A stretch of 37,539 nucleotides of DNA, taken from positions 1 through 37,539 of the forward strand of contig JALGVJ010000034.1 in the NCBI GenBank assembly GCA_029838195.1, read 5' to 3'. The notes under the pieces were generated by a model that saw nothing but the letters and a program-made list of their open reading frames with translations, did not search any database and was not told where the DNA came from. Positions 8,388-10,180 of the stretch are shown here, in pieces (the stretch's first letter is position 1; each line of letters opens with the position of its first letter). The position numbers and the translations under genes are program-made. The stretch comes from Promethearchaeota archaeon. Its GTDB lineage: Archaea; Asgardarchaeota; Lokiarchaeia; Sigyniarchaeales; SOKP01.

Positions 8388-9785
8388 TTATTCCGCACAA
8401 CAAGTCATTTTGGAGATATCTCGTTTGAAACTTTGAGCCGCTAATTTAATTTGTTCCGATAAAGTAGGAAAAACGTGGATAGTATTAATTACATCATCCA
8501 ATTTCATCTTATTTTTTAATATCATCGCACCTTCATGAATAATATTTGAAGCATTGGAGCTTAAAATATGAACGCCCAATATTTCTTCCGTTTCTCGGTT
8601 AATTACCATTTTTATCGCGCCTTTAGTCTTTCCCATTATCCTTGCTTTTGGTACCAATTCAATAGGAATAGTATTACATTTACATTTAAAACCTCTCTCA
8701 TTCGCTTCAAGATCTGTGAGTCCCACGCTCCCAACTTGGGGGTCCGTGAAAATTGCATGAGGTATCACATCATAGTTCATCTCAATTTTCAATTCAGATA
8801 CAATATTATGCGCAGCAATCATTCCTTCTCGAGCTGCAATAGTTTCTAATATGGGCTCTCCTGTTACATCTCCAGCTGCCCAAATGTTATCTCCCGCCCA
8901 CATTTGTTTATCTACTATAATCTCCCCTTTTTTTCCTATTTTAAGATTTAGCTTTTCTAATCCTAAATCATTGATATTTGCCGTTCGTCCGGAAGCTATT
9001 AAAATTTTTTCTGCTTTCAATGTTTCGCTCTCTCTTCTTATGAGGCACTCAGCATTTATTTCTCCACCTATTTCATTAATTTCATTAACCGTGCAATTTA
9101 GATGAATATCAATTCCCTCCTCTACTAAATATTGATAGAGAAGATTCGAAATTTCTGGTTCTTCATTTGAAATAATATTCGGTAAGGCTTCCAATAAGAT
9201 TACTCTCGAGCCGAATCTTGAAAATAATTGAGCAAATTCTAACCCTAACGCACCTCCTCCCAAAATTAAGATAGATGCCGGAATCTTTTTTAATTGTAAG
9301 GCTGAAATGTTTGTTAAATAATTAACGTCTTCTAATCCTTGAATGGGAGGAATATAAGTAGAAGAACCCATTGCTATTATAAAATTTTTAGCGGAATAAG
9401 TCGTTTTTCCTATAAGAATTTTTTCTGGCGAAATAAATCGTGCCTTTCCATTAAGATATTCAACATGCTCTAAATTCTCCAATATTTTTTTGTATTTTTG
9501 CTCTCGTAAATAAGCTACCAATCTTTCCTTACCTTTCATGATCTGAGCAAAATCAAAAGAACTTGAAGTATTTAAACCTAAAAATCTCGGATGATTATTG
9601 TCATAAACGATTCGTGCAATATTAAGCAAATATTTGGTAGGCACGCATCCCACGTTAACGCATGTCCCTCCAATTCCAACAATATCATCATTAATTAATA
9701 AACTTCTAATTTTTAATTCATTTAATTTCATGGCCGCTGCGAATCCTGCTGCGCCCCCTCCAATGATTATTATTTCATATCGCAA
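8388..9785 (-). CDS. merA: Mercuric reductase, lacking the N-terminal NmerA domain
   Basis: GGGAAG FAD fold, redox-active GGTCVNVGCVP, GGGALGLE NAD(P)H fold, FTDPQVGSVG, and the diagnostic C-terminal vicinal Cys pair (MTCCAE). Confidence 0.88.
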   Translation of the reverse strand: MRYEIIIIGGGAAGFAAAMKLNELKIRSLLINDDIVGIGGTCVNVGCVPTKYLLNIARIVYDNNHPRFLGLNTSSSFDFAQIMKGKERLVAYLREQKYKKILENLEHVEYLNGKARFISPEKILIGKTTYSAKNFIIAMGSSTYIPPIQGLEDVNYLTNISALQLKKIPASILILGGGALGLEFAQLFSRFGSRVILLEALPNIISNEEPEISNLLYQYLVEEGIDIHLNCTVNEINEIGGEINAECLIRRESETLKAEKILIASGRTANINDLGLEKLNLKIGKKGEIIVDKQMWAGDNIWAAGDVTGEPILETIAAREGMIAAHNIVSELKIEMNYDVIPHAIFTDPQVGSVGLTDLEANERGFKCKCNTIPIELVPKARIMGKTKGAIKMVINRETEEILGVHILSSNASNIIHEGAMILKNKMKLDDVINTIHVFPTLSEQIKLAAQSFKRDISKMTCCAE

Positions 9786-9926
9786 ATGTAAAAATCACGC
9801 TCTTTTAATTCTTTAATTAAATAAGTTTCTTTTTAAAATCCTGCCAGTAAATTAATAAATTCCTAACAATTTTTAATAATTTTTAAATTAATCAAATAAA
9901 ATTTTAATGAGAGCTTGCAATCTCTT

Positions 9927-9962
9927 CTCACTCGATAACTATAATTTGCTTATCGAGATCAT
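9927..9962 (-). promoter_or_regulatory. Putative eukaryote-like SECIS element (3' UTR selenocysteine insertion sequence)
   Basis: Minus strand reads AUGAU-CUCGAUAA-GCAAAUUAUAG-UUAUCGAG-UGAG: an AUGA/GA tandem core, a perfect 8-bp helix and AAA in the apical loop, about 30 nt after the TAA of a gene with 4 in-frame UGAs. Confidence 0.75.
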
Positions 9963-9991
9963 CGATCTTTCATCTTATTCTTTTCTTTCTC

Positions 9992-10180
9992 TTAAATGCC
10001 ATATCAAGGAGTATCACCGTAAGAGCAAAATATTCAGGGTCATCTATGCGGATTATCATGGCCCTTAACTATTCCCCCACAATTCTTACATTTGAAAGAT
10101 AAGGGTCAAGAACTTTTTAATATCTCCATTATCTGGACATGCCCGCAAGAGGGACATTTCACGTTGCTGGTTGATTTCAT
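9992..10180 (-). CDS. Small GDCCVxC-family Cys/Sec-rich protein, predicted selenoprotein with 4 Sec
   Basis: Manual translation: MKSTSNVKCPSCGHVQIMEILKSSUPLSFKCKNCGGIVKGHDNPHRUPUIFCSYGDTPUYGI-TAA. Two CxxC motifs plus the FCSYG signature; TGA at 10106-10108, 10040-10042, 10034-10036 and 10004-10006. Confidence 0.82.

Follow-up and report, generated by a model that had tools for sequence, protein, structure and literature searches.

The window considered here is a whole stretch of 37,539 nucleotides (nt) from a Promethearchaeota archaeon of the Asgard lineage Lokiarchaeia (contig JALGVJ010000034.1, assembly GCA_029838195.1). Its subject is a small gene with several predicted selenocysteine (Sec, U) codons, which lies directly upstream of merA, a gene for the core of mercuric reductase. 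The small gene occupies positions 9992-10180 of the minus strand, from an ATG at 10180 to a TAA at 9992, and comprises 62 codons plus the TAA when TGA is read as Sec. It is followed by an intergenic spacer of 206 nt (9786..9991, minus strand) that holds a selenocysteine insertion sequence (SECIS) and, past it, about 110 nt of AT-rich DNA. The merA gene (8388..9785, minus strand) begins with a TTG at 9785, 206 nt past the stop of the small gene, and encodes 465 amino acids with no NmerA domain. Small gene, SECIS and merA are consecutive and share one orientation, as had been described in an earlier, sequence-only reading of this DNA.

Four in-frame UGA codons, all on the minus strand, interrupt the small gene. 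Codon 25 (10106..10108) aligns with a nearly invariant Cys of the homologues that carry Cys throughout (Cys-forms), and codon 47 (10040..10042) is the first Sec of a UxU motif standing in for the CC of the GDCCVxC motif. Codon 49 (10034..10036) corresponds to the second C of that CC, which is an invariant Cys, and codon 59 (10004..10006) aligns with another invariant Cys, 41 nt before the AUGA of the SECIS. The encoded protein consists of a zinc ribbon (C9, C12, C31 and C34) and a C-terminal half rich in Sec and Cys (U25, U47, U49, C52 and U59).

With Sec read as Cys, the protein scores 41.0 bits against the NCBIfam family NF041374 (GDCCVxC), for which the cut-off is 40; in the genome search, where the TGAs count as stops, the score of the same open reading frame (ORF) drops to 27.1 bits. 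Pfam gives weak zinc-ribbon or rubredoxin-like hints. The window protein does not carry the literal GDCCVxC motif; its sequence there is H-R-U-P-U-I-F-C, and that of the orthologues is H-G-U-x-U-V-(F/L)-C. The second C of the CC and the final C can be aligned, and the vicinal CC has become UxU, a variant of GDCCVxC. The AlphaFold2 (AF2) model, with a pLDDT of 93, consists of a zinc ribbon of four strands and, behind it, a short helix (residues 50-54), with no thioredoxin fold; a Foldseek search of this model against the PDB returned generic zinc ribbons alone, all with E-values above 0.5. A word-indexed protein search with the small protein gave no match. By exhaustive HMMER search, the same proteins were found in metagenome catalogues, several of them mistranslated with W at the TGA positions. 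Moreover, short and shallow public contigs from two independent studies reproduce the window ORF: the first contains the whole of it with all four TGAs, and the second codons 33-62 with three TGAs and a single change, R46G. This change (T>C at window position 10045) replaces Arg46 by Gly and regains the orthologue consensus HGU before the UxU.

A six-frame search with the NF041374 profile across 400 genomes of the phylum gave matches in 63. Four in-frame TGAs are present in the matches of 24 genomes, which belong to two families of the window's order; together with the window and a copy found by hand upstream of a merA (genome G150), the four-Sec form amounts to 26 genomes of one order. Three more distant families carry an all-Cys homologue with a literal GDCCVFCSYG, scoring 72-95 bits. 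The members of the four-Sec family are 62-74 residues long, the core of the orthologues aligns without gaps, and none of 34 aligned members departs from the zinc-ribbon residues C9, C12, C31 and C34. C52 is also an invariant Cys, and positions 25, 49 and 59 are occupied by Sec in the four-Sec form and by Cys in the Cys-forms. With Sec47 and Sec49 substituting the vicinal CC, every non-ribbon Cys except C52 has been turned into Sec. The conversion of non-ribbon Cys alone argues that these positions are the working ligands.

The coding test compared 16 distinct orthologues, all equal in length. Each of the 16 has TGA at the four codons and no in-frame TAA or TAG, and the other two frames contain stops. 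Past the first UGA, substitution rates of 0.15, 0.27 and 0.36 at codon positions 2, 1 and 3, respectively, display the pattern of coding DNA, the same as before it.

The SECIS core (9928..9962, minus strand) is of the Loki type and begins 29 nt past the TAA. In the order 9962-9928 it reads AUGA-U-CUCGAUAA-GCAAAUUAUAG-UUAUCGAG-U-GA, with the AUGA at 9959-9962, a stem formed by 9950-9958 with 9930-9938, an 11-nt loop (GCAAAUUAUAG, 9939-9949) and the GA at 9928-9929. The stem has eight Watson-Crick pairs and a basal U-U; counting the U-U as the first stem position, the AUGA is directly 5' and the GA directly 3' of the stem. The loop starts with GC, has AAA at positions 3-5 and ends in AG, and the loop starts of the orthologues range from AAAAA to GCAAA. 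A SECIS-like element lies 5-42 nt past the stop in nearly all four-Sec orthologues. In 23/24 loci, 38-53 nt separate the last UGA from the AUGA; in the window the separation is 41 nt, a shorter C-terminal tail going with a correspondingly longer 3' spacer. This regularity suggests that the distance is under a spacing constraint, as has been proposed by Mariotti et al. (PMC4989117).

The structure of the element was revealed by comparative analysis alone. A single-sequence fold of the 3' untranslated region (UTR) was no better than shuffled sequences (z -0.27), and Rfam yielded no SECIS or other family at the gathering score over the window, nor at E-values up to 10 over 9700-10300, a blank that says little because no SECIS family is among the Rfam matches returned. 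The 3'UTR elements of 16 four-Sec orthologues were aligned with the window left out, and RNAalifold predicted from them a stem of eight base pairs with compensatory double changes in 6/8 pairs. Paired cells make up 95% of the SECIS stem and 88% over both helices, compared with 31-47% when the 3' partners are slid. A covariance model made from this alignment matches the window once (9898-9974, minus strand; 64.2 bits, E 1.8e-9), with the next match at 15 bits. Within the matched segment lie the SECIS, a small hairpin on the 3' side (about 9910-9925) and an A/T-rich run that includes T4 and T3 and may end the transcript. With this model, SECIS elements of the own genome are also detected behind hdrA-mvhD (loci L073 and L079) and behind two small genes (L075 and L076), with E-values of 0.002-0.008. 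A genome scan with a pattern of A/GUGA, a stem of at least seven base pairs, an A-rich loop and GA recovers elements with the layout of the window's behind hdrA-mvhD (contigs C75, C84 and C1) and behind two small U-containing genes (C7 and C38). These two ORFs, C7:31874-32143(+) and C38:68861-69208(+) (L075 and L076), carry the motifs SMUTMTFCG and RSUSRTSC, and each is followed by a lokiSECIS. The window element is predicted to support Sec insertion.

The element shares with the lokiSECIS, the Asgard type I eSECIS-like element (Mariotti 2016, PMC4989117; Huang 2024, PMC11227280), the AUGA, the nine-position stem, the 11-nt loop ending in AG, the GA and the position near the stop. It differs in serving four UGAs within a 62-codon ORF, two of them separated by one codon, in a loop that opens with GCAAA rather than with five adenines, and in the extra small hairpin that comes after it on the 3' side. 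This hairpin, with a UUGC-type loop and a T-run, stands straight after the lokiSECIS (9890-9925, minus strand) and is found in most orthologue loci. Its covariation support (helix 2) is weak; it could belong to the SECIS as a third arm or mark the 3' end of the transcript.

The window corresponds to contig C39 of a 4.5-Mb assembly with 33% G+C. This genome contains a tRNA-Sec (C3:36948-37040) with an adjoining SepSecS gene (483.6 bits), an EFsec/SelB-like gene (255.6 bits), a PSTK-like gene (153.6 bits, below its cut-off) and a selD with an in-frame TGA. Judged by homology, the Sec-decoding set (tRNA-Sec, EFsec, SepSecS, PSTK and SelD) is complete. Furthermore, the genome encodes full-length actin homologues (up to 443 bits with the Pfam actin profile), and its hdrA-mvhD pairs contain in-frame UGAs and are then followed by one SECIS. 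Such hdrA-mvhD/SECIS arrangements and Asgard traits are hallmarks described for Lokiarchaeota (PMC4989117).

It could be argued that the small ORF is a chance frame, or a decayed gene ending at the first UGA, and that the hairpin behind it is a terminator or an unrelated RNA. Standard ORF calling indeed yields 24 codons only, Rfam detects no SECIS at the locus and the NF041374 score barely exceeds the cut-off. However, the four TGAs are invariant and followed by a coding pattern, and C31, C34 and C52 are invariant though all of them lie beyond the first UGA. The SECIS covaries, and one model fits both this element and those of known selenoprotein genes; in addition, the spacing to the last UGA is tightly kept and the Sec machinery of the genome is complete. 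This alternative, which appears already contradicted by the comparative data, is very improbable. The selenoprotein predicted in the sequence-only reading has proved real as far as invariant TGAs, a covariance model built without the window and agreeing public contigs can tell, and the small gene almost certainly encodes a four-Sec selenoprotein of the GDCCVxC family.

The second gene of the locus encodes a flavoprotein that starts with MRYEIIIIGGGAAG and leads straight into the GGGAAG fold that binds flavin adenine dinucleotide (FAD); the absence of a GMTCxxC domain, noticed at first sight, is thus confirmed. Its C-terminus is KMTCCAE. It scores 511.9 bits against the MerA equivalog TIGR02053 (cut-off 454.45), 136 bits ahead of the next family, lipoamide dehydrogenase (375.3 bits, below its own cut-off), and the models for RclA, glutathione reductase and 'hypothiocyanous acid reductase MerA' score far lower, below their own cut-offs. 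The top three PDB matches are mercuric reductases, namely 5x1y, the archaeal NmerA-less 4ywo and the Tn501 core 1zk7. Four signatures of MerA have been described: a redox Cys pair (207/212 in Bacillus), a C-terminal CC (628/629), Tyr264, and position 605, which is Tyr in bacteria and Phe in archaea (PMC8261052). The active site GGTCVNVGCVPTK (CxxxxC) aligns with the same motif in 5x1y, 4ywo and 1zk7, and the KMTCCAE tail aligns with the LSCCA of solved MerAs. Residues 264 and 605 are taken to fall on the motifs NYLT and HVFPT. The Tyr of NYLT, equivalent to Tyr264, aligns with the Tyr of DYLT (5x1y) and PYWT (1zk7), and the Phe of HVFPT, the archaeal Phe605, aligns with the Tyr of PYLT and the Phe of 4ywo. 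The earlier reading had considered that the flavoprotein might group with other reductases. With a TIGR02053 score above the cut-off and all four signatures in its sequence, it is a genuine MerA and not another disulfide reductase, and NAD(P)H-dependent Hg(II) reduction is predicted for it.

The Metallosphaera sedula MerA (PDB 4ywo) is like that of the window in having no NmerA, in the active-site and C-terminal Cys pairs and in the Phe at archaeal position 605 (HxFPT). Unlike 4ywo, for which the alignment shows Phe, the window MerA keeps a Tyr at the position equivalent to Tyr264, and its host is a mesophilic, AT-rich Asgard archaeon. A related-locus search of genome contigs with the window MerA found only a Chloroflexota flavoprotein of 29% identity.

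MerA above the cut-off is present in 27/400 genomes of the phylum, eight of them in the window's family. The four-Sec gene lies upstream on the same strand in 7/8 of these merA-bearing genomes, five times at a distance of about 130-206 nt and twice with a MerB-like gene in between. One of the seven linked merA genes has an in-frame TAG, and in a ninth genome a truncated merA adjoins the small gene. The linked MerAs are about 55-63% identical to that of the window, so the gene order has outlasted considerable divergence. At three loci the order is thioredoxin-like gene, small gene and MerB-like gene, and two of them run on into merA. An operon-like mer cluster of one genus (L060:19-3065, L063:1156-4417 and L056:1083-2718) opens with a thioredoxin-like gene of the ArsE/MTH895 type, which is followed by the four-Sec gene, by a gene for a MerB/SaoL-like lyase that has a winged helix at its N-terminus, and by merA; in L060, an in-frame TAG interrupts merA.

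In other families of the phylum, MerA has a fused HMA-type NmerA (GMTCDSC...), a short N-terminal CxxC, or neither, and no GDCCVxC gene precedes it. These forms are found at L085, L091, L092, L094, L095 and L100, and at L093, L096 and L098; the short CxxC, where present, is CKTC or CESC and stands a few residues ahead of the FAD fold. The near-obligate adjacency to merA, together with a distribution complementary to that of the fused NmerA and CxxC forms, supports a working relationship of the small protein with MerA. Linkage, which the sequence-only reading had named as a check to be made across archaea, is partial: the order recurs in the window's family, but the small gene is commoner than merA, has other metal(loid) neighbours and is absent before MerA elsewhere in the phylum.

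The bacterial relatives were drawn from a plasmid collection, in which 353 records contain a member of the GDCCVxC family; seven of these matching records were examined. The order (merR)-merT-(merP)-GDCCVxC was observed in 5/7 and merB-merT-merP-like-GDCCVxC followed by a flavoprotein in 1/7, which bears out the earlier remark that GDCCVxC genes lie beside mer genes. In the remaining plasmid (1/7), the GDCCVxC gene is placed in an ars operon between ACR3 and arsM. Genes for ArsC and thioredoxin are also among the bacterial neighbours. Altogether, the family context (mer and ars operons in bacteria; mer, P1B, HgcA-like and ACR3 genes in Asgard archaea) points firmly to a predicted role in the handling of thiophilic metal(loid)s.

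The Jiella pelagia plasmid NZ_CP114030.1 (L101:3495-5079) was considered as a bacterial precedent for GDCCVxC with an NmerA-less MerA and is no clean one: its flavoprotein is below the MerA cut-off and lacks the CC tail. This 448-residue neighbour has equal scores for MerA and glutathione reductase, below both cut-offs. The GDCCVxC protein of the same plasmid ends in ...SCCAA, like the CC tail of MerA, a tail that may be supplied in trans.

The pairing of the four-Sec gene with merA suggests selenium-based mercury handling. It is proposed that the small protein, with 62 residues and presumably cytosolic, would use its Cys4 zinc ribbon as a scaffold, the remaining ligand positions of GDCCVxC having become Sec (U25, U47, U49 and U59) with C52 left. 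A single lokiSECIS, 41 nt past the last UGA, would decode all four UGAs. The selenolate-rich site would capture Hg(II), and probably other thiophilic metal(loid)s, off cellular thiols. Where MerA exists, Hg(II) would then pass to its C-terminal Cys pair by ligand exchange, the small protein taking in trans the role of the missing NmerA, and MerA would reduce Hg(II) to volatile Hg(0). The steps of this scheme differ in probability. Binding of soft metal(loid)s by the small protein is a fairly probable function, given its context. The wider reading of the locus as a two-gene mercury-handling module of a Lokiarchaeia-type Asgard archaeon, in which the Sec protein captures Hg(II) and passes it to MerA, stands at about even chances, and a direct hand-off of Hg from the small protein to MerA, taken by itself, is plausible but less likely than not.

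Several observations weigh against a dedicated partner of MerA. The linked genomes span about four genera only and are not independent samples. The small gene is roughly three times as widespread in the family as merA (about 20 genomes against eight), so most copies work without MerA; the majority of copies have no merA within 5 kb, and the Cys-form genes of other Asgard families sit amid housekeeping genes. A P1B heavy-metal ATPase gene adjoins the small gene at four loci, and its other neighbours include a CpaM-methyltransferase/HgcA-like fusion with ACR3, a MerB/SaoL-like lyase with an ArsE-type thioredoxin-like gene, and two paralogues with tandem Sec-Sec. The P1B-ATPase, the HgcA-like protein with CpaM and ACR3 point to a broader predicted role in metal(loid) handling, and the bacterial copy between ACR3 and arsM is likewise at odds with a MerA-specific one. 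The hairpin and T-run past the SECIS may end the transcript before merA, and none of the public sequencing runs listed for the locus is an RNA run. Finally, selenolates bind Hg(II) more tightly than thiolates. The transfer of Hg from the Sec site to the MerA Cys pair would be uphill, driven by the irreversible reduction alone, and a sink is chemically easier than a chaperone.

The wider distribution of the small gene, the difficulty of an uphill transfer from selenolate to thiolate and the possible terminator fit a general selenolate buffer at least as well as a dedicated chaperone. The same holds for the selenium-based sink that the earlier reading had offered as its alternative. As such a buffer or decoy for soft metal(loid)s, the protein would sequester Hg, As(III), Cd, Cu(I), Ag and organometals, shielding the many selenoenzymes and the thiols of the organism. 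No metal would be passed on to MerA, and the two genes would be neighbours only because they belong to one resistance island or are regulated together. The excess of small genes over merA, the P1B-ATPase, ACR3, HgcA-like with CpaM and MerB-like neighbours in different genomes, and the bacterial members in ars and mer operons (and in merRTP clusters without an annotated merA) are in line with this possibility, as is the established chemistry of the very tight Hg-Se bond, which favours retention. Yet the merA of the family adjoins the small gene in 7/8 cases, the pattern is complementary to the fused NmerA and CxxC forms elsewhere, and a stoichiometric sink with four Sec per molecule is costly. 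Buffering without transfer is a tentative explanation.

It is also conceivable, with a low probability, that the small protein is redox-active, a disulfide or selenylsulfide reductant that keeps the Cys pairs of MerA, MerB-like enzymes or arsenate reductase reduced, or that reduces a metalloid itself. Most known selenoproteins are redox catalysts (PMC13188914). An ArsE/MTH895-type thioredoxin-like gene is a neighbour in Asgard genomes, and ArsC and thioredoxin genes are nearby in bacteria. Against this, the AF2 model is a zinc ribbon with a short helix instead of a thioredoxin fold, with only generic PDB matches, and four Sec plus one Cys exceed the need of a redox pair. MerA, moreover, itself reduces the Cys pairs that it carries, by way of FAD and NAD(P)H.

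Some components of this proposed mercury handling have counterparts in known systems. The NF041374 family comprises proteins of about 60-70 residues with an N-terminal CxxC...CxxC zinc ribbon and a tail of the form ...C(V/I)(F/L)C(S/T)YG...C, with bacterial members in mer and ars operons. The window protein differs from it by four Sec as opposed to none or one, by the change of CC into U-x-U with a three-residue insertion before it, and by its archaeal origin and 3'UTR lokiSECIS. The family has been listed as 'Hypothetical protein GOS_B', with one Sec, in a 2026 review (PMC13188914). NmerA (HMA-fold, GMTCxxC), MerP and the predicted UxxU selenoprotein NF041115 are, as proposed here for the small protein, small soft-metal binders that present Hg(II) to the C-terminal Cys pair of MerA. 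In contrast with them, the small protein is a zinc ribbon and not a ferredoxin-like HMA fold, offers five candidate ligands versus two, and is encoded by a separate gene. A metal binder with Sec in place of Cys (UxxU, NF041115) has already been predicted in bacteria.

The mer operon of Sulfolobus (arsR/merR, TRASH, merA) also has a small Cys-rich metal binder next to an NmerA-less merA, and its TRASH protein has been proposed to traffic Hg (PMC3466566). The TRASH protein is of another domain, lacks Sec and is restricted to Sulfolobales. Two Asgard loci do carry a YHS/TRASH-like gene near merA: in another family, small YHS/TRASH-like proteins are encoded about 1.3 kb upstream of merA (L088:5532-5729(-) and L089:4985-5188(-)). 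The protein of one genome ends in ...HSCG, after which comes a TGA that could be a terminal Sec or a plain stop; that of the other ends in ...HGCCC. By analogy only, ArsD, an As(III) chaperone with CCxxxxC, uses a vicinal Cys pair and a third Cys to hand the metalloid to its partner, and the eukaryotic selenoprotein P has multiple Sec and binds Hg.

A 2024 survey of more than 400 Asgard genomes described seven selenoprotein families, with the four-Sec GDCCVxC not among them (PMC11227280). Prokaryotic selenoproteins have one Sec, rarely two or three, according to the 2026 review (PMC13188914), and Haft and Gwadz reported no selenoprotein in mercury resistance systems, although Sec-containing MerT-like and HMA-type proteins have already been predicted. 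The string 'GDCCVxC' was not found in the searchable literature, and the published selenoprotein lists consulted (including PMC13188914 and PMC11227280) contain neither a four-Sec form nor an Asgard member of NF041374. NF041374 with its selenoproteins, the lokiSECIS and archaeal NmerA-less MerA are thus already known; the four-Sec subfamily, its presence in Asgard archaea and its recurrent pairing with merA and MerB-like genes are new with respect to the literature consulted.

This four-Sec family adds to the Asgard selenoproteome, and four Sec in 62-74 residues exceed the Sec count recorded for prokaryotes. A single lokiSECIS for four UGAs, of which one pair is just a codon apart and the final one lies about 41 nt upstream, constitutes a compact natural test of eukaryote-like SECIS processivity and of minimal spacing. 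In its most specific version, the mercury-handling proposal would describe a selenolate relay of Lokiarchaeia-type Asgard archaea, in which a four-Sec zinc ribbon replaces NmerA and feeds Hg(II) to MerA and MerB-like enzymes. This would be the first selenoprotein of a mer system and, in the literature consulted, the prokaryotic protein with the highest density of Sec; one eukaryote-like SECIS about 41 nt off would serve for the processive reading of four UGAs, a UGA-N-UGA among them. As a whole, this version is speculative. If true, a Sec partner of MerA and MerB-like enzymes would provide a genetic footing for the microbial Hg-Se antagonism and would account for the way in which archaeal MerAs without NmerA obtain their substrate. 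The small size of the protein puts it within reach of chemical synthesis and makes a comparison of Sec with Cys feasible.

The search for relatives of the locus also revealed proteins with tandem Sec-Sec (about 150 residues; GCUU, AUGUU and DUU motifs) that have no Pfam match (L042:1700-2180, L043:3800-4990 and L050:1620-2900). In three genomes their gene immediately precedes the four-Sec gene. Two homologues are encoded in the own genome, C34:12285-12740(-) and C90:60155-60568(+); the former is followed by a lokiSECIS, AUGA-UACCUCUCA-AUAAAUGCUAG-UGAAAGGU-GGA, and by the same kind of 3' hairpin as in the window. These tandem Sec-Sec proteins are a putative second selenoprotein family beyond the published lists.

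A CpaM-type methyltransferase fused to an HgcA-like corrinoid domain is encoded near ACR3 and Sec-rich small genes (L043:1318-2982, L050:3679-5328 and L042:421-1542). The fusion scores 166 bits with NF043039 and 153 bits with NF040863, both below cut-off, and with ACR3 it forms a possible metal(loid) methylation cluster in relatives of Lokiarchaeia.

In the window itself, no merR, merT or merP lies within about 3 kb of the locus, in agreement with the first reading. The neighbours are genes for uS2, a MinD/ParA-like ATPase, an acidic ORF of 79 residues, a thiamine pyrophosphate (TPP) enzyme and a lipase-like membrane protein. The uS2 gene (6388-7311, plus strand) encodes a protein whose N-terminus is extended by about 100 residues; the extension is acidic, of low complexity and rich in E, D and K.

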